Shown: positions 2,737 to 62,839 of the stretch, in pieces
Position numbering within the stretch: the first letter of the stretch is position 1
How the letters are laid out: every line of letters starts with the position of its first letter
Sequence record: MN445185.1
Length of the DNA stretch: 64,000 nucleotides
Source of the DNA: Escherichia phage vB_EcoM_EC001
Reading direction: 5' to 3' (one strand)
The notes under the pieces: generated by a model
Told to the model about the DNA's origin: nothing
Databases searched by the model: none
Seen by the model: the letters and a program-made list of their open reading frames with translations, nothing else
Program-made: the position numbers and the translations under genes

Positions 2737-3300
2737 ATGTCCCGTTTACTAGAAATTCGAAACGATATCTGGCAAGAGCAGATCCACAACGATCCAGAGT
2801 GGGAAGGAGTTGAAAGTGATTTACCGGATAACCCCGACCAGCTGTTGGTGTTCCTTTATAGCGATAAAGCCAAACAGATCAAGGGGATATTTGAACGCAA
2901 AACGACAAGCTTGTCGACCTTACTGAGCTGCATTTGCTGTGGCATCAGTGAGCTTGATCCCAATCTATTCACCAACTATCTTGCGCGTAAAGTCCGTACA
3001 CCACTACTAGAAGTTACACTCCCGCCAGATATTCGTATCAGTAAAACTGTACCGACTGTTTTGCGTTTACAGGATGTGTCTGGTAGTAGCGACGATGGGG
3101 AAACAACGATTACTCTTTCCTCGTCAGAGAGTGAACTCGCAACCAAATCGTTTCTTAGCGAAGTCGAGGCCGGATTAAAGCAGGACGTAATCGTCTATAA
3201 TCTCGGCAGTGTGCCCATTGAGCCCATTTTACACTTCTTTGAAAGCCAAACCTGCCATCTTGTAGAAAGCTTAACATACCACTTTAAAGGAGCTTTATGA
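2737..3300 (+). CDS. hypothetical protein (187 aa)
   Basis: ORF with AAGGTGAG SD; 9-nt spacer from upstream gene. Confidence 0.65.
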   Translation: MSRLLEIRNDIWQEQIHNDPEWEGVESDLPDNPDQLLVFLYSDKAKQIKGIFERKTTSLSTLLSCICCGISELDPNLFTNYLARKVRTPLLEVTLPPDIRISKTVPTVLRLQDVSGSSDDGETTITLSSSESELATKSFLSEVEAGLKQDVIVYNLGSVPIEPILHFFESQTCHLVESLTYHFKGAL

Positions 3301-3584
3301 TGAAACTCGAAGGCTACGTTGTTACTGATAAACCTTTTGCTGAAGCCAACCTGTCGCGTTCACAGGTTGTTTATAAAGACATCGATGTGCCTGCCGAAAT
3401 CGTTAAAGCGAATCCCAGCTGGCTAATCAACCACGTTTCTTTGGAAATCACCAATCCGTTTATCAACGATCCAACCGACCCATTTGTCGACATGGGTAAT
3501 TTCCGCGATATTCTTTCCCCGCATCAATACCAGACAGTGGCACAGAAGAAAGGGAAGCTGCTCATCGAAACGTTGAGTGTGTAG
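3297..3584 (+). CDS. hypothetical protein (95 aa)
   Basis: ATGA start/stop overlap with upstream gene; AAAGGAG SD; followed by a strong terminator. Confidence 0.55.
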   Translation: MMKLEGYVVTDKPFAEANLSRSQVVYKDIDVPAEIVKANPSWLINHVSLEITNPFINDPTDPFVDMGNFRDILSPHQYQTVAQKKGKLLIETLSV

Positions 3585-3589
3585 TTTAT

Positions 3590-3630
3590 CTCCAGTAACC
3601 ACGAGGGTTACTGGAGTCCTCTTATTTTTT
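3590..3630 (+). terminator. intrinsic terminator
   Basis: 11-bp stem CTCCAGTAACC/GGTTACTGGAG, loop ACGAG, then TCCTCTTATTTTTT. Confidence 0.8.
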
Positions 3631-3663
3631 ACACTTAACTCAAATTAATTTGAGGTGTGGTAT

Positions 3664-4251
3664 ATGACAGAACGTATTTTACGACTGCAAGAGAACAGGT
3701 TAGAAGACCTGCACGTAATGCGTAGTCGCGGCTTGTTCCCAGTGGGGCTTGATGTAAGTGGGTTAATAACTTCTGCGCAGCACGGGGACAGGGTCATTAC
3801 AATGCATTCGCGTGGGAACGAAGTGGTCTCTGCGATTTTCATCGATAAGGTTATTCCGGACTCGGAAAGTGGTAAGGTAGCGGGACACATCATTTACGAA
3901 TACTTTCGCAGCATTCTATACGAGGAAAAGATAAACGTCAAAACTTTTATGGAGTACGCTAAGCGAAATAACTACATCGATGCGCGACTGATGGTCACGG
4001 AAGGCACCCCAACTATAAACGGTAAAGTCCACCATCGTTTACTTGGGGCGCAGTTGCCGAGACTGGGTGAGTTACCGACGACGATAGAGCTACACCAAAA
4101 AACAGATTGGCGACACAAAATCGAAGTGCTTCACAAGCTTTACGATTTATCGATCGTTCAAATCAAACTGGTGGACTTCACGCCTGCAAATATGCAAATC
4201 GCTAAGCGCGCATTGGGTTTTCGTATTCTTAACACAACGTTCACATTGTAA
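3664..4251 (+). CDS. hypothetical protein (195 aa)
   Basis: Track ORF 3655..4251 begins at GTG; start moved to ATG 3664 with GAGGTG SD. Confidence 0.65.
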   Translation: MTERILRLQENRLEDLHVMRSRGLFPVGLDVSGLITSAQHGDRVITMHSRGNEVVSAIFIDKVIPDSESGKVAGHIIYEYFRSILYEEKINVKTFMEYAKRNNYIDARLMVTEGTPTINGKVHHRLLGAQLPRLGELPTTIELHQKTDWRHKIEVLHKLYDLSIVQIKLVDFTPANMQIAKRALGFRILNTTFTL

Positions 4252-4282
4252 AATATCTCAGATATATATTACTTAGGTGAGA
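4252..4282 (+). promoter_or_regulatory. conserved promoter-like element, TATATTAC class
   Basis: …CTCAGATATATATTACTTAGGTGAG… right after stop of 3664..4251; near-identical copy at 62806; core matches phiKZ early-promoter element as I recall it. Confidence 0.45.
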
Positions 4283-4302
4283 GTTAAGAGATTAACTCAA
4301 CT

Positions 4303-4331
4303 GGCTACCCTCGGGTAGCCTATTCTTTTTT
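4303..4331 (+). terminator. hairpin + T-run between promoter-like motif and gene 4357 (terminator or attenuator)
   Basis: GGCTACC-ctcg-GGTAGCC then TATTCTTTTTT. Confidence 0.6.
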
Positions 4332-4356
4332 AAACCAATCGACTGTAGAGCAAAAC

Positions 4357-4758
4357 ATGACTATCAAGAAGTTCTTACAAACAGTAGTAGTTCTGGCCGC
4401 ATGTGGTATCGCAGCAACTTATGCTTTCGATAAGCCAGACGTGACTGAATACGTATCAGCGGATTCCGATTACGGTATTGCACCGAATGAAAAACCGGAA
4501 CTGATGCGTGAGGTCGAACAGTTACAAATCTACAAACTGACGGATGGTAAGAACTGCACAGGGCTGGTTATCGCTGATAAGAAACTGAAAATGTATCAGC
4601 GGTTAATCGACATATCGTGCGATCAACCAAAAGTCACCTCGGTCAGTGTATCGCCGTTGGAATTGCCAGATCTGGTTGCTGTGAGTTTTTATCACAACGA
4701 TGTGCTCGTTGGTCGCATCACCCTCAATCGTGGAGATATCAAAAATGAAATGCAATAA
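4357..4758 (+). CDS. putative lipoprotein (133 aa)
   Basis: N-terminal signal peptide with lipobox-like VLAAC-G. Confidence 0.6.
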   Translation: MTIKKFLQTVVVLAACGIAATYAFDKPDVTEYVSADSDYGIAPNEKPELMREVEQLQIYKLTDGKNCTGLVIADKKLKMYQRLIDISCDQPKVTSVSVSPLELPDLVAVSFYHNDVLVGRITLNRGDIKNEMQ

Positions 4759-5236
4759 CGTTAATCGCCACTTGGCCAAAGTGGTGCTTTTTACTGTGCT
4801 GTTGATGGCACTTGTTGTTGGGCTACGGATTTCTAAGGCACACGCTGACGAATTCAGCGGGTTCCAGGGCAGTATTAACGGCAGCATTCCAGCATATACC
4901 CGCACCATCAATCTTAATGATAAGCCGTTCTGGTGCAATGCGCGTAAGCTGCTTAAGAAACAGTGTCGTGTAGTTGACATATCCTTCAACGGTCGTGTCG
5001 CTATCGTACACCGTCCGGGCGATAAAGATTGCCCAGGTGGTTGGTGGGGTGCAGTCGACCGTCACAACGGTGACGCGTTATGGCTTATCCCTAATCGTGA
5101 TGAACTATCAGTGGAGAAAATTTGCAGCAAAGATTTCAGGGCCGGTTTTGTACAGCGACCGGATACCAAAACTCTGGCCTCCATCGCTATGTACTACGGT
5201 ATGGAAACCATCAAAACAATCGACTATTCAGAATAA
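4745..5236 (+). CDS. putative secreted protein (163 aa)
   Basis: Start moved from track ORF 4700 to ATG 4745 (GGAGA SD); predicted signal peptide ending ...SKAHA; several Cys; overlaps upstream gene by 14 nt. Confidence 0.6.
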   Translation: MKCNNVNRHLAKVVLFTVLLMALVVGLRISKAHADEFSGFQGSINGSIPAYTRTINLNDKPFWCNARKLLKKQCRVVDISFNGRVAIVHRPGDKDCPGGWWGAVDRHNGDALWLIPNRDELSVEKICSKDFRAGFVQRPDTKTLASIAMYYGMETIKTIDYSE

Positions 5237-5258
5237 CTCAAAAAATTGAGGTGCTATT

Positions 5259-5669
5259 ATGAAACATTTTTTATTACCAGTTTTACTTGCTACTCTGGCC
5301 ATTAGCTTCTTCGCTCGCGCTGGAAGTATCGAGTTACCAAAAGTTGTTAACGATCACGAATACGGCGGACAGTTCTGGTGCCAGAACTCTGACGTACAAG
5401 GCGGTAGCTGCCAGATCGTTGCGATGTCCGATAACAACCGTTACCTGTTAGTGAAAACGATGGGCGGTGTCGCATGTGGCGACCCTGAATACGGGGTTAT
5501 TAACATGGCAACCGGGCAAGCCGAATCCATGAACTACAATGATAACCAAGCCTGTAGCGGTGAAGCCGTTGCTGAGTTTACACGCGACCCAGGCGACAAT
5601 GCCCTGACGGTTATCATGTACGACCCTACGATTAAGAAAAACGTAGGCATCAATAAACTCGACTTTTAA
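5259..5669 (+). CDS. putative secreted protein (136 aa)
   Basis: GAGGTG SD; N-terminal signal peptide (MKHFLLPVLLATLAISFFARA); Cys-containing mature part. Confidence 0.65.
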   Translation: MKHFLLPVLLATLAISFFARAGSIELPKVVNDHEYGGQFWCQNSDVQGGSCQIVAMSDNNRYLLVKTMGGVACGDPEYGVINMATGQAESMNYNDNQACSGEAVAEFTRDPGDNALTVIMYDPTIKKNVGINKLDF

Positions 5670-5682
5670 GTAAGGAAACAAC

Positions 5683-6066
5683 ATGCGTGGATTTATGGGT
5701 ATTATCGCGGCGGTGTTCTTGACCGCTTCCGCTTCAGCTACAACCAGCGTAGAAGATTTACTGCCAGGCACACCGTATCAGTACAACCCGCCTTCATTCG
5801 AAGTCTGTACTGGCGACGATGGCAGATGTGAAGAAGTCAGCCGTCACGACGAGTATATCCTGGTCCACGCAAAGGGCGAAGAAACTTGTCCTGCAGGTTA
5901 CTACTTTCTGTTGAACTCAAAGGCACAAGAGATTGTGCCGGTAGAGACAATAACGTGCGACCCGACGCTTCGCGCGTCGCTCGCTTACAATACGAAAACC
6001 AAACAGCGCCTCCTGGTTATTGAACAACAAGGCGAAGTGCGTGGTTCAATAGCGCTCGACCAGTAA
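5683..6066 (+). CDS. putative secreted protein (127 aa)
   Basis: AAGGA SD; signal peptide (…AAVFLTASASA); Cys-rich mature part. Confidence 0.65.
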   Translation: MRGFMGIIAAVFLTASASATTSVEDLLPGTPYQYNPPSFEVCTGDDGRCEEVSRHDEYILVHAKGEETCPAGYYFLLNSKAQEIVPVETITCDPTLRASLAYNTKTKQRLLVIEQQGEVRGSIALDQ

Positions 6067-6095
6067 CCGAAAAGTTTTCAGACAGATGTTATAAC

Positions 6096-6168
6096 GTGAG
6101 ATGACGACCCATCTCACTTTGGCCCTGCGGTGATTTCCCCAACACTTAGCCGCAGGGTCCTTTTTAAT
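6096..6168 (+). terminator. tandem hairpins, second followed by T-run
   Basis: GTGAGAT…ATCTCAC, then CCCTGCGG-(19-nt loop)-CCGCAGGG followed by TCCTTTTT, which runs into the TTAATCGAC motif. Confidence 0.55.
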
Positions 6169-6181
6169 CGACTATTACTCG
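6164..6181 (+). promoter_or_regulatory. conserved 5'-leader motif TTAATCGAC(C/T)ATTA
   Basis: TTAATCGACTATTACTCG ending ~19 nt before ATG 6196. Confidence 0.35.
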
Positions 6182-6195
6182 TAAGGATTAAGCAA

Positions 6196-6696
6196 ATGAA
6201 CATGAACATTCTCGACGATACCCGTTCTTCTTTCTTTACTCAGATGAACGTTAACCCTGAACGTACCCGTGCTATTCTTTCTACTGGTTGGAAGTTGAAG
6301 TTGTTAGGCGAGTTAACCCTCAATCGCACCGACTGGCCAGCAGAAGCAACCGTACTGATTAACAGCATCCACAGCGAATGGTTAGATGCTGCGTTGAATG
6401 CCCCACAGCTACGTCCGTACTACCGGATGCTTCACGCGGGATATGAAGTATACCGCAAAGGTTGGTACGATGCAGCCACTTATTGCAAAACCCCTGAAGG
6501 TCGTGAAGACAACACTGTCGACCACGTATTAGTGAATAACTTCTGGGGAGACCAAATTGAGGTCTTACAACTCTCTACCGGTGACCGTATTCCGGCCTGT
6601 GAGTTATTCGAAACTAACGCACAAATGTACGAACCGTATGCAATGATTCGTGGCCATAAGGTCCCAATCATTTCCCTTATGCATATGGGGCTGTAA
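6196..6696 (+). CDS. hypothetical protein (166 aa)
   Basis: Track ORF 6130..6696 starts inside a terminator hairpin; start moved to ATG 6196 (AAGGA SD), preceded by the TTAATCGACTATTA motif. Confidence 0.65.
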   Translation: MNMNILDDTRSSFFTQMNVNPERTRAILSTGWKLKLLGELTLNRTDWPAEATVLINSIHSEWLDAALNAPQLRPYYRMLHAGYEVYRKGWYDAATYCKTPEGREDNTVDHVLVNNFWGDQIEVLQLSTGDRIPACELFETNAQMYEPYAMIRGHKVPIISLMHMGL

Positions 6697-6702
6697 ATAC
6701 GA

Positions 6703-6732
6703 GAGGTAGCCTACGGGCTACCTTCTTTTTTT
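6703..6732 (+). terminator. intrinsic terminator
   Basis: AGGTAGCC-tacg-GGCTACCT then TCTTTTTTT. Confidence 0.75.
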
Positions 6733-6750
6733 GTTGAAGAAGGATTAAAC

Positions 6751-7377
6751 ATGAACGAGATTACCCTGATTCGTTTCATCGACGATATGGTGACGTGTCA
6801 GAAAGCGAATCGTCAGGATACCAAACTGCGTATCAATCTGATGGAAGAAGAGGTAGAAGGGTTTCTGGAATACCCGCGATTGGTGAAGTGGTTTAAAGAA
6901 GCACTGCCGCGTAGCTGGGAACAGCTAGAAGCGTGGTTTGCTCTACCTATTGCAGAACGTAATCCCAATAATACGATCTTCACCGGAACTACTGCATTAG
7001 ATTTGGCTGGTTCGGTGGAGCAACCTAAACGTTTAGTTTTCTTCTACGTCAATGGCGATTCAATAATGGCTGATACAGTTAACTGGATTTCTGATGAGTT
7101 AACTGTAAACACCACATTGGTCGGTAGCGCTGCTGATGCCTGGGTTGTTGGTCAGCACCAATCGCAGCCGTACGAAGAAATCAAAACCGGTTATTTAATC
7201 CCGATATATCTCGACGGCGTGGCACCGGGTCGTAGTGCCGAACTGTTCAAATTCCTGCTTACTGAAACGTTAAAGGTTGTCGATTCTGATGCTGGTCGGG
7301 CGTGGTATGAATTAACCAAAGAGCGCACCGACAGTTTCTGGGAATCACTCGGCCACCGTAAGTTTACTCCGCAATAA
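6751..7377 (+). CDS. hypothetical protein (208 aa)
   Basis: ORF between two intrinsic terminators; GAAGGA SD. Confidence 0.65.
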   Translation: MNEITLIRFIDDMVTCQKANRQDTKLRINLMEEEVEGFLEYPRLVKWFKEALPRSWEQLEAWFALPIAERNPNNTIFTGTTALDLAGSVEQPKRLVFFYVNGDSIMADTVNWISDELTVNTTLVGSAADAWVVGQHQSQPYEEIKTGYLIPIYLDGVAPGRSAELFKFLLTETLKVVDSDAGRAWYELTKERTDSFWESLGHRKFTPQ

Positions 7378-7388
7378 CTCTCCTCTCT

Positions 7389-7420
7389 GGAACCCTTCGG
7401 GGTTCCATTTCTTCTTTTTT
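7389..7420 (+). terminator. intrinsic terminator
   Basis: GGAACCC-ttcg-GGGTTCC then ATTTCTTCTTTTTT. Confidence 0.75.
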
Positions 7421-7440
7421 ACGCATGACCTTTTGGATAT

Positions 7441-7454
7441 GAACGACTAATACT
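7441..7454 (+). promoter_or_regulatory. conserved 5'-leader motif (variant GAACGACTAATACT)
   Basis: Same spacing (~19 nt) to ATG 7474 as other copies. Confidence 0.3.
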
Positions 7455-7473
7455 TTCTCATTAGAAGGCAAAC

Positions 7474-9984
7474 ATGCTCAAGGTCGAACGTATCATTTTG
7501 AAAGGATTTACCGGCATGGGGTTACATGAAATCGAAACGTTTGATTTCACCCTCAAGTCCACCGTTACCATCATCCTCGGCGGTAACGGCTGCGGTAAAA
7601 CAAGCCTCCTATCTGTTTTTCTCCCCATAGCTCCAGCAAAATCTGAATTCCGTGAAGGTGGTTCTTACACTAACTACGCGTTAGTCGGGGACGACCGTCT
7701 TAAGTTTGAAGTCCTGCGTCGTGGGTCTTCTCTGTCTTGTAGTATCTTCAACATCACTAAAGGTGTTTCCGTCGTAGACTCGGTAAACGCCAAAGTTTAC
7801 AACTCCATGGTGGAGCAATTAACCGGAATCACCAAAGAAATCAAAGAGTTAATTAATGGTGAGACCTTATTAACTGACGCCACTACCGAAGTTCGTCGTA
7901 AATGGTTTACGTTAATGTCAGAATCTGATCTGACGTACGTTGTTGGTTGTTATCGTCGTCTGCGTAAACTCGCTTCCAGTTTAAGTGGGGCCATTGAGCA
8001 CACCGGCCGTAAAATCGGTGAGGCAAAAATGCGCGTGGTGGACGATGAAGAAGATCGTGCACGTTTGGAAGTTCGTTTGAAAGAACTGGACGTTGAGCTT
8101 CAGGAACTAAACCGCACCATTGAAGCGAGACCCGGTTTAGATAACGCCGTTTCGGTTGATAGTATCCGGAAACGCATTGCTTCGTTGCAACCGGCTGTAA
8201 AACTCATTATGGAGCGTTATGGTGTTCTGCCTTCTGACGAACTGATTAACGAGTTTCAAAGTCGTGTAGTTGCCTGGCGTGAGCAAGCTGCCTCTGCTGA
8301 AACTGAATGCAACATGTACAATAAAGAGTTGTCACAGCTACTGGATGAGGAGTCGCGTCAAGCGTATCTGATGCGCAACCATACCGGTCTAAAACAAACA
8401 ATCGACAGCTTAAAACAGGAACTGGCAACGTTCCAACAGAACTGGATGTTCCCGGCTCTGTTTGAAGGTACCCGCATCGATGTGGATAGCATTCAGAACG
8501 CGTTAAACGATGCCTGTAACTGGAATTTACCGTTGTCCATGCATCTGGACCAGTTAAAGACAACAGAGCGCCTGGGAGCGTTAGAGAAGCGTTTACAGGG
8601 TATGGATTTAACCTCTGCGGGTCTATCTGAAAAGCTGCAACGTTGTGAGAATGTGCTACACGGTTTATACCACGACCGTCAACACTTCTTAGAAACTGCA
8701 GAAGTTGATTGTCCACAGTGTAACCACCGTTTCCGTCCTGGGATTCGTAAGTCGTTACCTGAAATTGAAAAGGCCATCAACGATAATGAAGGTTGGAAGA
8801 AGCAGCTGAAAGACGAAATGGATAGTCTTTTGCGTGACCGCAAAGAGATTGAAGAGGACGTCCGTAGCTTACGTACGATTCGCGAAATCGTCATGTCGTA
8901 TTCCAATCATCCCGTTGTCGGTTTGTTTTTCCGTAAACTGCAGGAGCTGGATATCTTCACCACGGCGCGGGATCGTTACGGTGCCATTGCACGTGCCTTT
9001 ACTGAAGAGTTAGATTCGGCCATGATGTATCTGCGTCAATCGGCGAAGCTTGCAACAGCGGAACGGGAATGGCAAGAGGCTGTTGCCGCAGTAGGTAACG
9101 TTGATGGTGCGCTGAGCCAGAAAATTGAACATATCCGTTCACAACTGGATGGGGCTAACCGTCGACTGATAGAATACCGCAGACAAGCCAATGAGCTGGA
9201 ACGCGAAACCACCCAACTGCAACAAACCAAAGAAGCAATCGAACGTTTCCAAAAGGGCTACGAACATCTGGTATCGGAAATGAACATCTCCGTTAACAAC
9301 GTCGTGGTTCGCGAGTTGTTAAACCGACGCGAAGCGAAGCTCGATGCGTATACTTCCGCTCGTGAACGGTTTCGTCAAATGGAAGGGGCTATTGCACGTT
9401 TAGCGGAACTGGAAAAAGAGCAAGCTGAATTGCTTAAAGAGCATCACCATGCCAGATTGATTATCAATGCCGTCTCACCCGAAAAAGGATTATTGCGTCG
9501 TTACTTTTATGCTGCGATTACCCGCATCATGGATTTAATGAATCGGTATATCGAAATGGTGTGGGCATATCCGATGCAGGTTATTCCATGCGATCTAACC
9601 GACGGGGATTTGGATTATACTTTCCCGGTACGATTAAAAGACCATGAAGAACTGGTGCCGGATGTGAAGAAAGGTTCGAAGGCACAGCGTATTATCTTTA
9701 ACATGATGTTTCGTTTAACGGCGTATAAAGCGCTTGGTTTACAAAACTATCCTTTGTTATTGGATGAACCCTCTGAAGGCATGGATGAGGAACACAAAAA
9801 TCGACTGGTCAACTTCATTAAATCGTTGGCGTTGTCGGGAGAGTTTTCTCAATTGCTGGTCGTTTCGCATGAAGCGGAAGTTCATTCTAAACTTAACGAA
9901 GCCACCTACTGTGTCGTGGAGCCAGAAGGTGTAACGCTTCCACCGGTTTATAACGAAGGGGTAATAATCAAATATGCATCATAA
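7474..9984 (+). CDS. Rad50/SbcC-like SMC-family ATPase (836 aa)
   Basis: N-terminal Walker A GGNGCGKTS; long predicted coiled-coil; central CPQC (zinc-hook-like); C-terminal Walker B/D-loop LLLDEPSEGMD and VVSHE. Assigned by motif architecture only. Confidence 0.75.
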   Translation: MLKVERIILKGFTGMGLHEIETFDFTLKSTVTIILGGNGCGKTSLLSVFLPIAPAKSEFREGGSYTNYALVGDDRLKFEVLRRGSSLSCSIFNITKGVSVVDSVNAKVYNSMVEQLTGITKEIKELINGETLLTDATTEVRRKWFTLMSESDLTYVVGCYRRLRKLASSLSGAIEHTGRKIGEAKMRVVDDEEDRARLEVRLKELDVELQELNRTIEARPGLDNAVSVDSIRKRIASLQPAVKLIMERYGVLPSDELINEFQSRVVAWREQAASAETECNMYNKELSQLLDEESRQAYLMRNHTGLKQTIDSLKQELATFQQNWMFPALFEGTRIDVDSIQNALNDACNWNLPLSMHLDQLKTTERLGALEKRLQGMDLTSAGLSEKLQRCENVLHGLYHDRQHFLETAEVDCPQCNHRFRPGIRKSLPEIEKAINDNEGWKKQLKDEMDSLLRDRKEIEEDVRSLRTIREIVMSYSNHPVVGLFFRKLQELDIFTTARDRYGAIARAFTEELDSAMMYLRQSAKLATAEREWQEAVAAVGNVDGALSQKIEHIRSQLDGANRRLIEYRRQANELERETTQLQQTKEAIERFQKGYEHLVSEMNISVNNVVVRELLNRREAKLDAYTSARERFRQMEGAIARLAELEKEQAELLKEHHHARLIINAVSPEKGLLRRYFYAAITRIMDLMNRYIEMVWAYPMQVIPCDLTDGDLDYTFPVRLKDHEELVPDVKKGSKAQRIIFNMMFRLTAYKALGLQNYPLLLDEPSEGMDEEHKNRLVNFIKSLALSGEFSQLLVVSHEAEVHSKLNEATYCVVEPEGVTLPPVYNEGVIIKYAS

Positions 9985-10165
9985 AGGTTGGCGCTTATGG
10001 GCTTGGTGGGGTTTTCAGTTCCTTCAGTTTGTTGTGATGGTACTGTACCTCTCCTTTTGTGCAACCGTAGTGGTTATCGCTGCGGTCGTTTATTTAGCTG
10101 CTGCTCTTAAAGAACGTCTGTTCGACACGCGTTGTGAGTGGCGAGATATAGGAGAACGGACATGA
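9974..10165 (+). CDS. small membrane protein (63 aa)
   Basis: Overlaps end of upstream gene; strongly hydrophobic core with charged C-terminus; weak SD. Confidence 0.4.
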   Translation: MHHKGWRLWAWWGFQFLQFVVMVLYLSFCATVVVIAAVVYLAAALKERLFDTRCEWRDIGERT

Positions 10166-10266
10166 TTGAAGGTATCGTATTAACCGGTATTGCACTGTGG
10201 TTGATTCGTGGTGCCTGGGGTTGGATTATCCGCACGAAAGGATGGGCATTCCATGGCAAGACGTAA
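10162..10266 (+). CDS. small membrane peptide (34 aa)
   Basis: ATGA overlap with upstream ORF; AGGAG 7 nt upstream; hydrophobic MIEGIVLTGIALWLIRGAWGWII…; below ORF-track size cutoff. Confidence 0.4.
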   Translation: MIEGIVLTGIALWLIRGAWGWIIRTKGWAFHGKT

Positions 10267-10444
10267 ACCTGGTCGTTTAAAGTTTTGGGCAGTTGTGGTA
10301 ATGCACACTGTGGTGCTACTCGGTATTTTCATGTCTCGCGCTACGCCTGCCTTTTGGGGCTTAGTTGTTTTGGTGTTCTTAGAAGGGGTTTACTTCGGTA
10401 ATCTGTGGAGCAAGCCCCCCGCGTTTAAGGGACCCGGCTTATGA
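10253..10444 (+). CDS. small membrane protein (63 aa)
   Basis: ATG inside track ORF 10208..10444; basic N-terminus then two hydrophobic stretches; overlaps previous peptide by 14 nt. Confidence 0.4.
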   Translation: MARRKPGRLKFWAVVVMHTVVLLGIFMSRATPAFWGLVVLVFLEGVYFGNLWSKPPAFKGPGL

Positions 10445-13635: not shown

Positions 13636-14358
13636 ATGTTTCGCACCATTTTATTTCTTCTGGTAGCAGTGACCACATTCAACAGCAACGCTTCTTACCA
13701 GTCCACCAGTAACAAACATCAAAAAGAATTTGTCCTTATCCAGGACCAGTTCAATGAGATTAAACCTCTCATCGTCTCTGCATCTCGAAAACAAGGCGTA
13801 CATGCCGGGATGCTTGCGACCACCATTTACCGCGAATCCCGTTTTAATAAAAACGTGGGTAAGAATAAATCGAGCAGTGCTAGTAGTGTTGTCCAAATGA
13901 CGACAGGTACTAAACGCTCCATGATACGTCTGTATGGGAAACAACTTAACATCCCAAAGAACGCAGACCTTAATAAACCGAAATATGCTGTACAGCTTGC
14001 TGCTGTTTACATGAAACACATCGAGGATCATCTGACAAAACAACTCAAACGCAAGCCGAGCACAGCCGAAATTGCATTAGGCTACCGCTTCGGTGAGAGC
14101 GCTGCTGTTGCGATGATTAAAAAGAAATCATCGGTCGGGAAACGCTGGATGGACAGCTACCGAAAAGACGCAGCATTCTACGGTGCGAAAATGACGCCAC
14201 CGAAAGCTGAAACACGTCAGCTTGCTTTTGCGAAGGAAGACCGCGACCAACGCGTCGCTGAGCTTCAGAAAATCTGGGATACGCTGTACACCAAAATATC
14301 ACCTGCGGCCGGTACACTACTGGCAAATAACACTATCATGAAAGGAGCATTGCTTTGA
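13636..14358 (+). CDS. secreted protein, possible lysozyme-like/lytic transglycosylase (240 aa)
   Basis: Signal peptide; loose SLT-like segment YRESRFNKNVG…SVVQMTTGT; preceded by a 14-codon upstream ORF. Confidence 0.55.
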   Translation: MFRTILFLLVAVTTFNSNASYQSTSNKHQKEFVLIQDQFNEIKPLIVSASRKQGVHAGMLATTIYRESRFNKNVGKNKSSSASSVVQMTTGTKRSMIRLYGKQLNIPKNADLNKPKYAVQLAAVYMKHIEDHLTKQLKRKPSTAEIALGYRFGESAAVAMIKKKSSVGKRWMDSYRKDAAFYGAKMTPPKAETRQLAFAKEDRDQRVAELQKIWDTLYTKISPAAGTLLANNTIMKGALL

Positions 14359-18555: not shown

Positions 18556-19065
18556 ATGATAGCATCAGTTTTCAAACTGCTTCCATTCTTACAGATGCTG
18601 TGGGAAGCATTTAAACCGGGCGAGGGGGAGAAAGTAACACGAGCCGGGAAGATAGTGACACTAGTGATAGTGGCACTGGTCGCGTTCTCTGCATTTGTCT
18701 CATATGCCTATATTGTTCAATACCACACACTGGTTAGCGTCCAATCGCGTACTCAGTATCTGGAGATATCCTATAAGGAGCTAAAAGAGAAGTCCGATCA
18801 TGGCGAAGTGGAGAACAATAAGCTGTACGATCGTCTCTTCACATGCCTGGGTTCTCGATCGCCATATGATGGTACCAAATCTCCAACAGGGACAGGCACT
18901 GGGGCCGCGGTTCCGCCTGAAGAACTCAAGCCGGTAACACCACAGGCACCGTTAAATCCGTCTAGCCCGCCTGCCAAGAAACACCAGGCGGCTTCTCGCC
19001 CAGTGGGGTCGCAGGCGGCAAACGATTTCCGACAGGAGATTATCAAGACGCTTAATAATCCATGA
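18556..19065 (+). CDS. membrane-anchored protein, possible i-spanin-like (170 aa)
   Basis: Start moved to ATG 18556 (GAGGTG SD); one N-proximal TM helix, then charged/coiled segment and Pro-rich C-terminus. Confidence 0.55.
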   Translation: MIASVFKLLPFLQMLWEAFKPGEGEKVTRAGKIVTLVIVALVAFSAFVSYAYIVQYHTLVSVQSRTQYLEISYKELKEKSDHGEVENNKLYDRLFTCLGSRSPYDGTKSPTGTGTGAAVPPEELKPVTPQAPLNPSSPPAKKHQAASRPVGSQAANDFRQEIIKTLNNP

Positions 19066-19074
19066 GGAGCATAC

Positions 19075-19554
19075 ATGAAGTTATTTTTGGTGGCGATACT
19101 GGTGCTATTGTTGACAGGATGCCCTGGGGTCATCCGTCACGTAGACCCAGATTACTCCTCAACCGGAGATTGGCCTTTTCGTCCTTTAGAACACCCACCA
19201 GTATATAACGGTGGGAACAGTCCTGAGGCGAAAAAGCTGGCAGGGAAAATGTTTGTTGCGGATGTGAACGCTTATGCTTATTACGTTTATCTGTACGCTA
19301 AGTCAGTAAACAACTATGCAGAAGCTAAAGGGTGGCACACCCCGATGACCGCACCGCTTTGTGAAGAGTTTATTCGCCCCACTCTTCATGGTATACCCTC
19401 CGGGATATATCTCGACCCTGGTTCTCGTAGCCCTCAAGACATTAGTCGTGATTTGTCACGACAGATTAAGTCTCTCATTCGCAGCTATCGCGAAGACAGA
19501 GAGTCTTTTAATCGTGCCTACGAACGGCACAAAAGTAGTTGCCTTGTGCAATGA
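19075..19554 (+). CDS. putative lipoprotein, possible o-spanin-like (159 aa)
   Basis: Signal peptide with lipobox LLTGC; GAGGAG SD; terminator follows. Confidence 0.6.
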   Translation: MKLFLVAILVLLLTGCPGVIRHVDPDYSSTGDWPFRPLEHPPVYNGGNSPEAKKLAGKMFVADVNAYAYYVYLYAKSVNNYAEAKGWHTPMTAPLCEEFIRPTLHGIPSGIYLDPGSRSPQDISRDLSRQIKSLIRSYREDRESFNRAYERHKSSCLVQ

Positions 19555-44747: not shown

Positions 44748-47700
44748 TTAGCTTGCTTTCCGACTTACGTTTAACGACGGTGTCGGTTGGGTTATTTCCT
44801 GCCTGCGTGCAGCTGAGCCCGGAGGAGCCACATTTGCCGCTTGCTGGATACTACCACCCCGTGTGTCGTTTGCCGCTCTCGGATTTGATTTCAAAATATC
44901 ACGAATCTCTTTCAAGTAATCGCGAGACTGAATCAGTACCTTGAGCTGCTGAACATCTATCGGGTCACCATTCAGCGTTGGCGTCGATGCTGTAGCATCA
45001 GAAGTTGGGGCGGCAACTGGACGAGCTGCTGCGTTAACCTGCGCTTCCGCGCCTGCTTTCACTTTAGCAACATCCGTTGCAGACAATCCTTCTGCTGCAG
45101 CTTGCGACGCTACGGTTTCGGCTGTTGTTGAGGCATCGGATGTTCCGGAACCACCTGTAGTTGGTGTAGGTGCTGCTGGTCCTACATTACCTGCGGCGGT
45201 AGCCATTGCATCTTGTGCCGCCATGGCCCCTTTCTGCGTCAATGCGTCATCACGACGATTAGCATTATCTGCCGGCAGGTTATCTGCTGGCGACAGACTC
45301 GGATCATTAGCGGCCGGTGCACCCATTGCTGCTGCCGGGTTGGTTGGTGAATTAGGCGACAAGCCTGCAACCATATCCTTCGTCTTACTCGGATCGGCAG
45401 CGACTTCGTTGGCAGAAATTGCGCCCATACGGCGGTTCAGTTCCTGAATAACCCCATCCACGCTACGTATACGACCGTTGCTGTAGAAGACGTTGGCATT
45501 CCCTCTCAATATTGCGGATGTAATCCCAGGAGCACTCGATGCCGCCATATTCGGATTACGCTTCCATGCTTCCAGGAATTTCTTACCGCCGCCCGCACCC
45601 AGGAAGTGATACAGATAAGCCACGGCTGGAGGTGGTGCTTTACCACCCAGGTCACGCTGTGCTTGTTGGATGTTGTCACGAATGAACTGTACACCCAATA
45701 TAGCATTCGCCCACGGGTCCATCTGGTTAACACGCGGAATACCGAACTTCCGCGAATACCCCTTCATCATCCCGTCCCACGTACCGTCAATAAACTGGAA
45801 CAACCCAGACGCCGAAGCATACGGGTTTTTAGCGGTGTAGTTAAATCCGGACTCCGCCTTAGCCATTGCTAACGCCACTGCAGGTGGCACGCCCATCATG
45901 TTCGCCGCATCGGTAATCAATGCTTTGATATTCGGAACGTTCAACGCACCCTTTCTACCCAACATTTCTATCGGGTATTTTTCAGCCAGTGACTTATAAT
46001 CACCGTCTTTCACATCACTCAGGTTAATCGAAGACGAACCAGTGGTCATTGCAGCGTAGTTCCGCACACCACCAACCGCATCGACGACTTGACCCAAGTT
46101 ACCCGGCACACCACCACTCGTACCCGATGGAATGTAGCCTGAGGCGCGAGCACCGTCAGATGACAAAGAATCTCCCGAACTGATGTTCGAGTCTTCTTCA
46201 TCTTCATCGGTGACTTCCAGAGAACTGCGGTTCTTGTTACGATCCTTCCAGCGCGCACGCTTGCCATTATTTCTAATGGCTTTAATCATGTTACGCACGG
46301 CAAGGTCAGCTTCTTTTGACAACAGCTTCAGCGTTTCCAGCTCGGCTTTAATAGACGATGGGTTCGTGTTAGCCTCACCCCCTAATGGGTTGATATTCAC
46401 TTCCCACACCGACTGTCTTATACCACCTTTCAAGCTGTAGGCTGTTGACATCATCAAGCTGATTTCGTACAGGTAACCACCAGTCAGCTTCAAGTTCAGC
46501 GGATCGGCTGTTGGCAGGTAACGCTTCACCCCAACCAAATACGTCATGAATACCGGTAAGAAACGGTCAAAGAACCACCGCTTCAAACGATCTTCTTTCG
46601 GTGTACCGATAGCGTCTGGAACCATCGAGGCGATTGCTTTCTTCCAATCTCCTTTGTAGCTTGCGGTTTTCACGTCAATGTCTTTGATGACGTTCTTCTC
46701 GAATACCGTGATCAACGTGCGGGTGGCGTTATCGATGGTGGTAAAGCCGTAAGTCTTCCAACGCACCGATTCCATCGCATTCATGTCTTTCTGGTCGAGC
46801 ACCGCATTCCAGTCTACCTGAATCTGAACCTGCTCTGTTCCGTCTTCCCAACCCTCTACCTTCGCCAGATTTTTATTACGTTCGTTATCCAACTGTCCAA
46901 GTTTGTTGATAGCTTCATCAACGCCCGCGGACTTAATCCCCTCCACGGCCGGTGCCATTCCGTACTTACGTGCTTTCTTATCGTCCATTCTGGACTTGAT
47001 TGCACGCTCGACTTCATTCTGCACTTCCATAACCTCTTCACCGCTCAAGAACTCCTTCGGTGTAAAGGTTACAACGTCCCAAGCTTTCGAGAAGAAACCT
47101 TGGTTGACTTTGCGTGGGTCTGTTAACGAAGAGAACGCTTTTGCATCCTTAGTCATCTTCATTTTGTTGAAGAGAGTCAGCATGTCCTCTTTCGATACTT
47201 TCTTCGCATCGCCGACGTCAGCCAACTGGATACTGTTCGGCATTGACTTCAGTGCCGTAATCCAGCGGAGATAAATCGGAATAAAGCGCTGAAGCATAAA
47301 CGCTTGGAAGGCCAACATCTCGCCTTTTTCCTCAACGTTAATACCGAACCCTTCAGCTAGCTTCTGAACGTCTTTTCCACTTAGCCCGCGGAGACTGGCT
47401 TGGCCATCTTCCGCGTAAGACACATACTCACGCAATGCGTCTTCTAAGTAACGCGCTTTCGCCCCGTCGTCCGACGACCACTTATCGTAATCACGGAAAC
47501 CGTACTGAGCTAAACGCATCTTATCCAGGTACTGGGTATAGGTAGTCGTTGCAATCCTGTACGCGGCGTAACCAGCCGCAGCGATCGCACCACCGATAAG
47601 AATTGCCGGCCAACCCACCGCAGTCACGACGGCAGATGCCGCAGTTGCCACAGCGGACACCGCGGGTGCCGCCAAACGGGTTACTGCGAACTTACCGACA

Positions 47701-50700
47701 TTCCACGCAGCCTTACCTAAAAGACCTACTGGTTTTAACACGCCCCATTTCGTGATAGAACCGAGTATATTACCCACAGTTCCCAAGATACTGACGATGG
47801 GACCGATGATAGGTAAGCTTTTCACCATATCCCACAGACCGCCAGATTTCCCTTTGGAGCCCTGCGCTTTCTCTTTCTTCTCCTTACGTTTCTCACGCCA
47901 ACGTTTGAAGAAGTTAAGGTAATCGCGTTTTTCATCACCTTCAGGCGGCTTGTTACGTTTACCGAACTTCGCAAACATGGTGCGAATAATGCCATCGTCA
48001 CCACCTGCACGGGATACTGATTCGCGCATGGTGTTAAACCATGACATCTCTTGCAAGCCAATCATTCGGTCCAAGCGTTCGAATAACCTTGCGCCTGCAG
48101 ACTTGGCGGCATTCTTCCCTTTGTTAATAACCCTCCCTGCTGCATCACGGGCGGTCTCAAGGTCTTCCTTCGCATCGCCGTAGACTTTACGGCCAGAAAG
48201 GCCACCTTTCGCGTTCAAATGGCTGCGATAAAACTCAGCAACATCATCGTCGCGTCCAGCCAACCGACGTTCAACTTCGTAACGTGTAGCAATGTCGTGT
48301 CGTGCTCCACGATATCCATCGAGCATATCCCCAGCCCGGCCTCGGAAACCACTGAACCAACCACGCAGGCGGTCACGTCCACGACCAAAGAACGCTTTTG
48401 TTCTTGACCAACGTCCACCAAAACGTTCAGACAGTGACGCTTTCGCGCGATCATACGCCCCGCGTACTGCACGACCGATCGTACTACCGCCACCCCCGAC
48501 GCCCTTCTCCATTTCCTCTGTCCAACTTTCGTCTTCCGGATCTCCCGGTAAACGTTGGTTCAACAGTTTATAGATACGGATAAGGATGTGGTTGGTTTTC
48601 TTGCCGGTTGATGAGAAGAGACTGAAACCACCGCCCCCACCATCTTTACGGCCTTTCCACCAACGCGTCAGTGGGTTGTCGGTAATCATGTCTTTCAGAC
48701 GATCGACACCACGTTTCGCAAAACCGAGCACTTTACCCGGTAAGCTCGTTACACGGTTGAACGCTTTCTGGAGACGTGTCTTTTCTTCGCCTTCCGGAAT
48801 CTCGTTCAGCCAGTCCTTAATCTTACCAACGATGCTGCCCGCTTTCGGTGACAGGAAATCCAGGAACCTTTTCGGTAGCTTAGCCACCTTATTAAAGCCT
48901 AAGCCAATCTTACTGGCCAGACCTTGGGTCAGTGCTTGGATTTTCCCGCCTTTATAGTAGCGGAGTTTACCCGCAGCGGCTAAGTCAGCGGCTGCTAATA
49001 TCAGATTACCTGCGGAGTCAACAATATCACTCCCCAGCTTGATGTCGTCCAGCGTTTTCAGCTGAACCATTTTACCATCAATGACCTGATAGTATTCTCC
49101 AGCTTCCAGACGTGCACCTTGCAGAACAACATTACCGTGGTCATCGTAAACGTCACGGATACCCAGTAGTCCTTTACCGAAAGAGCTTACCGCTTCAAAG
49201 CCACCACGGACACTACCGCTGATAAGGCCACGCATCCGGGTTAAGAAACCAGGACCTTCTCCGCCACCCATTCCTGCGACTTTACCGCGTGCCCAGCCAC
49301 CGAACTGGTTCAGTTTATTCCAGGCACCCTTAACACCACGTTTCGCAAAGCCACCGATTCCTGCTGCGGTGTCGAACAACACACCACCCCAACGACGAAT
49401 AAGCCCATCTTCACCGATGATAATACGACGGCGTTTACCGCCACCGCTACCACCACCAGGACGAGGTGGTCCCATCTCTTCGTCACCAGAACCAGCACCC
49501 CCTGCTAACGAAGCCAGGAGAACCCCTTCTTCGTCCATACTTCTGACGTGTTCCAGAATTTTCTGGAGGGTGTCACTGTTGTTATTACCCCGAATCGCTT
49601 CGATGATGCCGTCAAAGTTATTCCGTGGCGCTTCTTCGCCGCGGTTACGTTGACTCAACAATTCAACAAAGTTAGTCGAGGTTTCACCGTAGAGAACTGC
49701 GGCTAACTGCCGAGGCGACATTCCGCGGCCTTTACCACCGCCACGTAAAGCCGGCGGCAACGACGTGTCATCGGCACCACCATTTACCCCTTGGTTCATT
49801 CGGCGCAGATAGTCGCCTAACGCCGAACCGTTTTGCAGCTTACGTTGAATCTCCTGCTCACGAGTCAACGCACGACCGCTGCGTGTCTTACCCATTGCCA
49901 AGTCATTAAACAAGGTATAGGGATCGGACAGGTCTTTATCCACGCCGAAAGTGTCACTCTTCGCGTCGTAGTTAAAGATACCCGCATCGCGCAATGCTCG
50001 CTCACCGTAAATATTCACCGCCTCGTCGATAATTGCCTGACGTTGGGTGATAGATGACTGCACTGTGGAGATTTTGCGGGCCAGCTCGTTACTTAATTCG
50101 TTGCTACCGCCGACCAAGCTATCAGAATGCCCCTGTAACGCTTCCTTAATGCGTTCTGCGGCGTTTCCTGGCATATACCGATGAAGATGCATCGGGTCTT
50201 TCAGAATCGCTTCTACGTCGAATGCGCGGCCCTGCGAGGCTCGCGACTCGATATAGTCGGCGAGATGCTGTCGATCCTTCTGCGAGAGCGTTTTGCCGCG
50301 GTCAACAAAATCCACAGTGCTGTTAATGGAATTTTGGAGACGCAGGCGTTGTTCATCGTTTGCAACCGCCTTGCGTACGCGGTTACCGACCACTTTGCGG
50401 TCTACGAAACCACGGCTGGTGATGTCATATTCCAGGTCGGCATGTTCGCCATAGCCACGACGGACAGATTTGTTAATCTCTGCCAGCCAGGCAGGAATAA
50501 CTTCAACCAGGCTAAGATATGCTTTACGGTCAAACTTCGCCGAACGGCTTAACGTTTCGCCATTACGCTCGTCAAGGAAGGCTTTCTCGCGGTTTAGCGG
50601 TTGGACAATACCGAGTTCATTCAATACCCGGAACAAATCCGCCAACGGCCCTTGCGTTTCGCCTGCGATAGCTGAGTTCGAGATAGAGGAAAGATTACCA

Positions 50701-62805: not shown

Positions 62806-62839
62806 CAAAAAGAACTGAGATATATATTACTTAGGTGAG
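62806..62839 (+). promoter_or_regulatory. conserved promoter-like element, TATATTAC class
   Basis: CAAAAAGAACTGAGATATATATTACTTAGGTGAG, downstream of a terminator and ~50 nt upstream of gene 62890. Confidence 0.45.

Follow-up and report, generated by a model that had tools for sequence, protein, structure and literature searches.

Four tandem genes of SPN3US-like jumbo phages encode a predicted exported domain family with relatives in enterobacterial islands

Within a 64,000-nt stretch of Escherichia phage vB_EcoM_EC001 (sequence record MN445185.1; "the window" below always means this whole stretch), we analyzed a cassette of four small genes at positions 4357-6066, the homologues of gp180-gp183 of Salmonella phage SPN3US. 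By sequence comparison, the four products are paralogues of one previously unannotated domain, and we are highly confident that they make up an exported, periplasmic paralogue family. Relatives of this family occur in integrative islands of enterobacterial genomes, where one is fused to a domain resembling the lysozyme inhibitor Ivy, and we tentatively propose that the cassette proteins are periplasmic binders or inhibitors of peptidoglycan-cleaving enzymes. As far as the tools used here show, what is new is the recognition of four genes as one domain family, a confident structural model, the finding that a lipobox in one member is not conserved, a conserved promoter-to-terminator unit, and bacterial relatives with an Ivy-like fusion. 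Nucleus-forming jumbo phages have been studied mostly for intracellular events, almost nothing is known of their envelope-directed products, and a comparative-genomics paper on jumbo phages makes no mention of signal peptides or secreted proteins. The cassette genes are as follows, with predicted signal peptidase cleavage marked by an arrow.

4357-4758, + strand: gp180 homologue, 133 aa; predicted signal peptidase I site TYA↓FD at residue 23; LAAC lipobox with Cys16; divergent member with two cysteines (2-Cys)
4745-5236, + strand: gp181 homologue, 163 aa; long signal peptide, AHA↓DE at residue 34; domain with four cysteines (4-Cys)
5259-5669, + strand: gp182 homologue, 136 aa; signal peptide ARA↓GS; 4-Cys domain; central family member
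5683-6066, + strand: gp183 homologue, 127 aa; signal peptide ASA↓TT; 4-Cys domain

Across positions 3600-7400, the window shares 96-97.5% identity with Salmonella phages JN03, SEGD1, SPN3US, and the SPFM phages (genus Seoulvirus, ~240 kb), which by sequence makes it part of an SPN3US-like nucleus-forming jumbo phage. Its cassette genes, for which we use the SPN3US names below, correspond to SPN3US_0180 to _0183, each a "hypothetical protein" in the GenBank annotation, and an SMC/SbcC-like gene (7474-9984) lies three genes downstream of them. A mechanical open reading frame (ORF) list starts gp181 at 4700, but we judge 4745 to be correct because it has a GGAG Shine-Dalgarno sequence, agrees with the N-termini of orthologues, and is the annotated start in SPN3US. 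Between the window and SPN3US, the differing codons of the four genes comprise 37 synonymous and 8 non-synonymous cases, which indicates that these ORFs are real genes under purifying selection.

The calling of signal peptides rested on a rule and, more strongly, on conservation. The rule asked for a basic n-region, an uncharged hydrophobic h-region of 7-15 or more residues, and small residues at -3 and -1 near the end of the h-region. All four proteins satisfied it, with a best 12-residue Kyte-Doolittle mean of 2.4-3.2 and small-x-small cleavage motifs (TYA↓F, AHA↓D, ARA↓G, and ASA↓T in gp180 to gp183). This signal-peptide architecture was kept in 29 of 29 orthologues despite almost no shared sequence in those segments. 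Of the 28 remote homologues taken from an exhaustive search, 27 kept it too, and the lone exception is N-terminally truncated. A first-pass annotation of the window, made from the sequence alone, had described four consecutive signal-peptide genes at 4357, 4745, 5259, and 5683 with Cys-containing mature parts, and our results bear out both descriptions: the predicted mature parts span 108-129 aa (110, 129, 115, and 108 residues for gp180, gp181, gp182, and gp183) and carry 2, 4, 4, and 4 conserved cysteines. A crude version of the rule marked 8 of the 76 ORFs in the window as exported (9 with the true gp181 start), and the cassette four are contiguous. By our own estimate, the chance of four exported ORFs in a row is ~0.007, an improbable run that is accounted for by tandem duplication.

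The same annotation had called one of the four a lipoprotein, a label that our results did not support as it stood. Under a rule of the PROSITE PS51257 type ([LVI][ASTVI][GAS]C at the end of the h-region, Cys at 15-35, K/R in the first 7 residues), gp180 of the window does carry a lipobox (VLAAC, Cys16), while gp181, gp182, and gp183 have none. However, only 2 of 26 gp180 orthologue groups satisfied the rule and the remaining 24 did not: the corresponding position reads LAFL in SPAsTU, IAVC-V or IAFC-V in phiEaH2-type proteins, and AAVC-F in ChrisDB-type proteins, and the Wellington type has no cysteine there. Every gp180 orthologue keeps a signal peptidase I-type (AXA-like) site a few residues downstream of the lipobox position. 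The lack of a conserved lipobox makes it doubtful that gp180 is a lipoprotein. The gp180 protein of the window phage may be lipidated, but the sequences indicate that lipidation is not a property of the family and that its conserved feature is ordinary export. We thus rejected an identity as conserved lipoproteins.

The paralogy of the four proteins had gone unnoticed in the first-pass annotation. Each is a full-length member of a PHROG family of unannotated function (9424, 17072, 8968, and 5248; E 1e-43 to 9e-86). These are four separate families in PHROG, whereas our comparisons show them to be one family that also has bacterial members. The gp181, gp182, and gp183 proteins cross-match one another's PHROG families, including gp181 to the gp182 family, and in blastp gp181 matches gp182 (E 1e-6) and gp183 (E 3e-5). 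We aligned 19 mature 4-Cys domains, drawing on the syntenic genes of SPAsTU, phiEaH2, ChrisDB, pEa_SNUABM_4, pEa_SNUABM_11, Machina, and Wellington. In this alignment, Cys1, Cys2, and Cys4 do not vary, and for Cys3 a single subgroup is misaligned. Proteins of the gp180 type form a tighter family with two invariant cysteines. When enlarged alignments were compared with hhalign, gp180 matched the 4-Cys family at 67% probability (E 5e-5), in a register where its cysteines coincide with Cys3 and Cys4 and the C-terminal strands line up. The two profiles are bridged by a 2-Cys protein of a distant metagenomic phage, which matches the 4-Cys profile unaided (14.9 bits).

The pattern of cysteine loss also argues for how the disulfides are paired. 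Two remote 2-Cys members, P0047 and P0051, match only the C-terminal two-thirds of the 4-Cys profile, and since Cys1 and Cys2 have been lost together in these and in gp180-type proteins, the likely disulfides are Cys1-Cys2 and Cys3-Cys4.

AlphaFold2 modeled the mature domains with confidence. For gp182 (42-sequence alignment), the mean predicted local distance difference test score (pLDDT) was 91.5 and the predicted template-modeling score (pTM) was 0.85; for gp180 (21 sequences), these values were 89.2 and 0.81. Both models are all-beta, with four strands followed by three, plus a short N-terminal strand, and the modeled domain looks like two adjacent four-stranded propeller blades packed face to face. 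Foldseek returned nothing from the PDB below E 0.06, and a weak match of the family domain to the immunity protein Tni2 (E 0.097) was not significant. A structure search of BFVD recovered only the same family, from Erwinia jumbo phages. Given that no PDB fold matched significantly, we regard this as a distinct small domain without a close solved relative.

Sequence searches were consistent with an earlier statement that the proteins bear no recognizable enzymatic motif. Neither Pfam (E up to 1) nor NCBIfam scans matched any of the four proteins, and scanning 42 family members one by one against Pfam, with E values allowed up to 10, turned up nothing beyond scattered single matches. The PADLOC defense models matched neither the phage proteins nor their bacterial relatives, and a profile search of PDB sequences returned only serotransferrin and glucokinase, both at E above 0.3. 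There was likewise no sequence or fold match to the inhibitor families MliC/PliC, PliI, and PliG.

The blade-like sheets raise the idea that three to five paralogues, contributing two blades each, assemble into a closed hetero-oligomeric ring in the periplasm that either binds a glycan (peptidoglycan, lipopolysaccharide core, or enterobacterial common antigen) or acts as a scaffold. We consider such a propeller or lectin very unlikely. The monomer models are compact and confident alone, the number of copies differs between genomes, and bacteria have members in single copy. The monomer model consists of two sheets only, not the closed ring of at least four blades that defines a propeller. Compared with known beta-propellers (PD40/TolB, S9-peptidase, WD40), the domain shows identities of 5-14%, no significant Foldseek match, and no Pfam repeat matches, and its conserved disulfides are not a propeller feature.

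The gp180-gp183 proteins are missing from the mass-spectrometry table of the SPN3US virion, its supplements, and the accompanying text. This indicates that the cassette proteins are not virion parts. The first-pass annotation had named two outcomes that would count against its view, a lack of predicted signal peptides and detection as cytoplasmic virion components, and neither was observed, the signal peptides being conserved across the family. We therefore rejected a virion-protein identity. That the genes might encode lysis components (spanins or accessories to a holin and endolysin), or virion or cytoplasmic proteins with hydrophobic N-termini arisen by chance, is largely refuted and has become scarcely tenable. 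The gp180 lipobox and the long N-terminal hydrophobic segment of gp181 do superficially recall an o-spanin/i-spanin pair. However, the predicted folds are globular and all-beta with disulfides, with none of the coiled-coil features of an i-spanin or proline-rich features of an o-spanin, for which reason a spanin identity was rejected, and the signal peptides are conserved family-wide. A better spanin-like pair lies elsewhere in the window, where a 156-aa protein with a weak FtsH-extracellular-like match (18595-19065) adjoins a 159-aa protein with the canonical lipobox LLTGC (19075-19554); together they are a candidate i-spanin/o-spanin pair.

Searching 1.84 billion cluster representatives exhaustively with HMMER recovered only 41 proteins at E up to 1e-3. 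Several of these are low-complexity giants or scrambled assemblies, and most of the matches that were retrieved have 105-165 residues, a signal peptide, and the cysteine pattern. Scanning viral contigs with a narrow alignment gave five loci only and no new context. Scrambling is seen in the SPFM phages: some of their assemblies (LR535901-LR535917) match the cassette region only in ~40 short pieces, and proteins predicted from them (database entries P0038 and P0049) are scrambled permutations of gp183 and gp181, which is a problem of assembly quality and not biology.

Every phage copy of the cassette is found upstream of the SMC-like gene, whether in Seoulvirus, Erskinevirus, Machinavirus, Wellingtonvirus, or one metagenomic jumbo phage. 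Three members are present in Machina and ChrisDB and four in SPN3US, SPAsTU, phiEaH2, Wellington, and pEa_SNUABM_11; the cassette of the widespread metagenomic jumbo phage also has four, two of them 2-Cys and two 4-Cys. The gp183 gene is conserved across all four genera and the metagenomic phage. By contrast, gp181 is the most variable paralogue, found only in Seoulvirus and Erskinevirus among the genomes examined. Compared with their neighbors, gp180, gp182, and gp183 are equally or better conserved in relatives, with identities of 67-70% to SPAsTU and 30-36% to ChrisDB and Wellington, in which several flanking genes are undetectable. Hypervariability was rejected on the grounds that identities to relatives equal or exceed those of flanking genes, and recent horizontal acquisition on the grounds that GC content, overall and at third codon positions (GC3), resembles that of the neighbors.

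Homologues in bacteria provided the lead to function. Two of them, P0048 and P0032, reside in integrative islands of enterobacterial genomes, among genes for AlpA, YagK/YfjJ-family proteins, a resolvase, the KlcA antirestriction protein, RadC, and CbeA/CbtA. In the P0032 island, the family member adjoins a gene for a 295-aa secreted protein whose N-terminal half weakly matches Ivy (PF08816, E 1.4e-3, 19.2 bits where the Pfam cut-off is 21). Among PDB sequences, this protein matches Ivy proteins best (E 0.014). When ten homologues were combined into a profile of this Ivy-like domain, only four PDB sequences matched, all of them Ivy (E 0.002-0.01) and all over the disulfide-bounded loop region of Ivy, and NCBI names several homologues of the fusion "Ivy family c-type lysozyme inhibitor". 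The C-terminal half of the fusion matches the phage family in hhalign at 87% probability (E 3.8e-6, 85 columns) with all four cysteines aligned. On Escherichia coli chromosomes, a 136-aa secreted protein is encoded directly upstream of a 312-aa version of the fusion; it is 42% identical to gp182 without gaps and scores 103 bits against the family profile. This pair was found in 75-84 of 5,426 complete E. coli genomes (~1.5%), always on the chromosome. Homologues also occur in Salmonella, Serratia, Klebsiella, Citrobacter, and Yersinia, and single-copy family members exist in bacteria.

Gene order in one E. coli O157-type island (locus L030, positions 3259-9206) is conserved: genes for a GTPase, a WYL regulator, two tiny ORFs, and the 136-aa gp182-like protein are followed by the 312-aa Ivy-like/4-Cys fusion, DUF932, KlcA, RadC, DUF987, and CbeA/CbtA, intact or as remnants. 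A WYL-domain gene also precedes a stand-alone family member (P0036) on a short metagenomic contig, L018.

In the periplasm, Ivy proteins inhibit C-type lysozyme and, weakly or partly, bacterial lytic transglycosylases (PMC10139938). Like Ivy, the cassette proteins are predicted to be small, disulfide-containing, periplasmic proteins of the Gram-negative envelope, and in enterobacterial islands the Ivy-like domain is fused to a homologue of the phage family, next to a gp182-like gene. Unlike Ivy, the phage proteins have a different fold and no Ivy domain; a Pfam scan at E up to 1 matched none of the four to PF08816, and likeness to Ivy is confined to the bacterial fusion partner. The link is one of fusion and neighborhood rather than homology. 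The bacterial Ivy-like domain itself differs in having CE(x)GNCG where Ivy has its CKPHDCG loop. Still, fusion and adjacency with an Ivy-like domain point to peptidoglycan hydrolases rather than receptor masking.

The same fusion could be read in favor of an immunity-like role, in which the proteins neutralize toxins that act in the periplasm, such as amidase or muramidase effectors of type VI secretion, colicin- or pesticin-like muramidases, or animal lysozyme. This would keep the infected cell alive through the long jumbo-phage cycle, and island copies would do the same for the bacterium. Small secreted disulfide proteins in tandem arrays are typical of periplasmic immunity proteins, and the weak Tni2 match leans in the same direction. 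However, that match was not significant, no effector gene adjoins the family in the phage or the islands examined, and the benefit to the phage is conjectural. On balance, we consider an immunity role unlikely.

Masking of receptors or other envelope components would instead involve a target other than peptidoglycan (a receptor, a Tol/Ton component, lipopolysaccharide, or a flagellar part). Binding would block adsorption or DNA entry by other phages, or keep progeny from being lost to lysed cells, in the manner of T5 Llp, which binds FhuA. Similar to T5 Llp and other receptor-blocking phage lipoproteins, the cassette proteins appear small, exported, and early, and gp180 of the window has a lipobox. 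By contrast, we found no homology to Llp, and three of the four cassette proteins are not lipoproteins. With the Ivy-like lead pointing elsewhere, receptor or envelope binding seems to us fairly unlikely.

The first-pass annotation had placed the genes behind a promoter-like element, and this proved sound: a 22-mer, AGATATATATTACTTAGGTGAG, at 4260-4281 has an exact copy at 62818 where 0 were expected. This and the other elements that flank or lead the cassette genes are listed here.

4258-4281, + strand: promoter-like motif TCAGATATATATTACTTAGGTGAG, identified by repetition and conservation; predicted start G4279, 6 nt past the AT-rich core
4281-4298, + strand: small stem-loop GAGTTAA-GAGA-TTAACTC, read from the sequence, directly 3' of the motif
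4303-4331, + strand: terminator-like hairpin GGCTACCC-TCG-GGGTAGCC plus T-run, from a terminator scan; the hairpin itself spans 4303-4320
4337-4344, + strand: AATCGACT box in the 5' leader of gp180; more copies at 5218 (before gp182) and 6166 (before gp184)
6121-6164, + strand: conserved hairpin GGCCCTGCGG ... CCGCAGGGTCC, 3' of gp183; ~19-nt loop with conserved TCCCCAAC; T5 tail

Across the SPN3US genome, the core GATA[GT]ATATTA[CT] occurs in 14 copies, all on the + strand. The longer form of the motif is followed by a short hairpin and a AATCGACTA box, 50-85 nt upstream of start codons. We sampled five further phages from four genera for its conservation: the motif heads the cassette gene block in SPAsTU, phiEaH2, ChrisDB, Wellington, and Machina, where the spacers have otherwise diverged. 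The motif closely resembles the consensus of early promoters read by the virion RNA polymerase of phage AR9, experimentally defined as AAATATATATTAT-N6-G+1 (PMC5312081). Applying the N6-G+1 rule places the start of transcription at G4279. The GATA[GT]ATATTA[CT] set probably represents the early promoters of Seoulvirus-like phages, from which we infer early expression of the cassette. A literature search for TATATTAC yielded no relevant paper, and no SPN3US transcriptome was found. Within the window, the core motif occurs at 4261, 22624, and 62819, and its copies fall into two sub-types, ...TATATTAC(C/T)TAGGTGAG and ...TAGATATTATCT....

Hairpins of differing sequence likewise follow other copies of the motif in SPN3US and related phages, and the stem-loop at 4281-4298 is a probable structure of the transcript 5' end. 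Around the terminator-like hairpin at 4303-4331, gene content differs among the phages. Four relatives (phiEaH2, ChrisDB, Wellington, and Machina) have a 150-520-aa gene separating the motif from the equivalent hairpin, and in each but Machina a 79-83-aa gene comes next. SPAsTU has the small gene only, downstream of the hairpin, and the lineage of the window has lost both. Given these extra genes in relatives, the arrangement in the window looks like the remnant of a deletion.

The AATCGACT box occurs in 17 copies in SPN3US compared to ~7 in shuffled sequences; 15 of these are on the + strand, and several lie 12-40 nt upstream of start codons. The AATCGACT(A) copy at 5218 is inside the end of gp181, ahead of gp182. 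The box may represent a second class of promoter or a site of processing. At the other end of the cassette, RNAalifold on six phages supported the hairpin at 6121-6164 with 11 pairs, 6 of which show compensatory changes on both sides. This hairpin is probably the 3' end of the cassette transcription unit, and its conserved TCCCCAAC loop suggests that it is more than a plain terminator.

Peptidoglycan-cleaving domains that such proteins might act on are encoded by the phage itself. The virion protein gp239 (44748-51869, - strand; 2,373 aa) contains an SLT lytic-transglycosylase domain at residues 1984-2072 (38 bits) and was detected in virions; it is likely the particle's cell-wall-piercing enzyme. 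A 240-aa protein encoded at 13636-14358 combines a signal peptide (…TTFNSNA↓SY) with an SLT domain (27 bits, above the Pfam cut-off), is not in the SPN3US virion proteome table, and on these features is classed as an exported muramidase.

Putting these observations together, we tentatively favor the following course. The proteins would be transcribed early, probably from the motif that resembles promoters read by an injected virion RNA polymerase, and exported by the Sec pathway, with the signal peptide most likely cut by signal peptidase I. In the oxidizing periplasm, each would fold into a compact all-beta domain of two four-stranded meander sheets, stapled by one or two disulfides, with gp180 keeping Cys3-Cys4 only. 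There they would bind to enzymes that cleave peptidoglycan, of the lysozyme or lytic-transglycosylase type, and probably inhibit them. One candidate target is the gp239 SLT domain on superinfecting particles, which would amount to superinfection exclusion similar to that of Spackle in phage T4. Alternatively, the phage's own exported SLT enzyme may be restrained until lysis, or host lytic transglycosylases may be kept in check until then.

The comparison with T4 is one of functional analogy only. Spackle (gp61.3), made early, inhibits the tail lysozyme gp5 in the periplasm and, like the cassette proteins as we predict them, is small, phage-encoded, signal-peptide-bearing, and not part of the virion (PMC7677548). 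In both systems, a virion protein bears a peptidoglycan-cleaving domain, here the SLT domain of gp239. The Ivy-like fusion lead is compatible with Spackle-type exclusion. However, T4 has a single gene compared to the four paralogues here, and neither Pfam nor annotated PHROG matches gave homology to gp61.3. Spackle is also helical, in contrast to the all-beta models of the cassette proteins.

Several points weigh against inhibition of peptidoglycan-cleaving enzymes and are the reason we word it cautiously. The phage proteins themselves lack an Ivy domain; they are connected to one through gene fusion and neighborhood in a bacterial relative, whose Ivy match is marginal by its bit score. The family domain in the fusion could equally be an anchor, a dimerization module, or a cell-wall-binding module, and it need not share the activity of its Ivy-like partner. 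No inhibitor fold appeared among the structural matches. In addition, the cassette evolves no faster than its neighbors, which is unlike a fast arms race with incoming phages. The early timing is read only from the resemblance of the motif, a terminator-like hairpin lies between this motif and gp180, and the signal peptides were called by rules and conservation rather than by SignalP.

A broader possibility, which we regard as speculative and rather improbable, is that the family inhibits lytic transglycosylases or lysozymes in the periplasm and forms a new structural class of such inhibitors. In nucleus-forming jumbo phages, it would serve as an early, multi-paralogue, Spackle-like shield against tails of superinfecting phages that bear SLT domains. 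In enterobacterial CP4-type islands, it would serve, alone or fused to the Ivy-like domain, as an anti-phage defense of the envelope that blocks wall penetration.

Regardless of its activity, the cassette is a conserved, multi-copy exported family common to jumbo phages and to islands of E. coli and Salmonella, where it is coupled to a domain like that of lysozyme inhibitors. If the proteins do inhibit wall-cutting enzymes, they would add a new fold to the few proteinaceous muramidase inhibitors and would explain how jumbo phages protect the host wall during a long infection or exclude rivals. Inhibition would also suggest a defense principle, the blocking of tail-borne transglycosylases, that bacteria may use as well. 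If the inhibitor proposal is false, the four genes would still be of use as a well-defined and testable group of phage proteins directed to the envelope, for which good structural models exist.

Some observations concern the surroundings of the cassette. The gp178 orthologue just upstream (3297-3584) encodes 95 aa compared to 175 aa in SPN3US and aligns with the N-terminal half of the SPN3US gene only, which indicates a truncation or deletion in the window. Just past the SMC-like gene, two 63-aa ORFs (9974-10165 and 10253-10444) have strongly hydrophobic N-terminal or central segments and are possible small membrane proteins. Finally, SPN3US gp172 (160063-160272; positions 10063-10272 of locus L022, - strand), which falls just beyond the window, is a 7-kDa YdgH/BhsA/McbA-like (DUF1471) protein. 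DUF1471 is a family of periplasmic stress proteins, yet gp172 is listed in the SPN3US virion mass-spectrometry table with 81% coverage.

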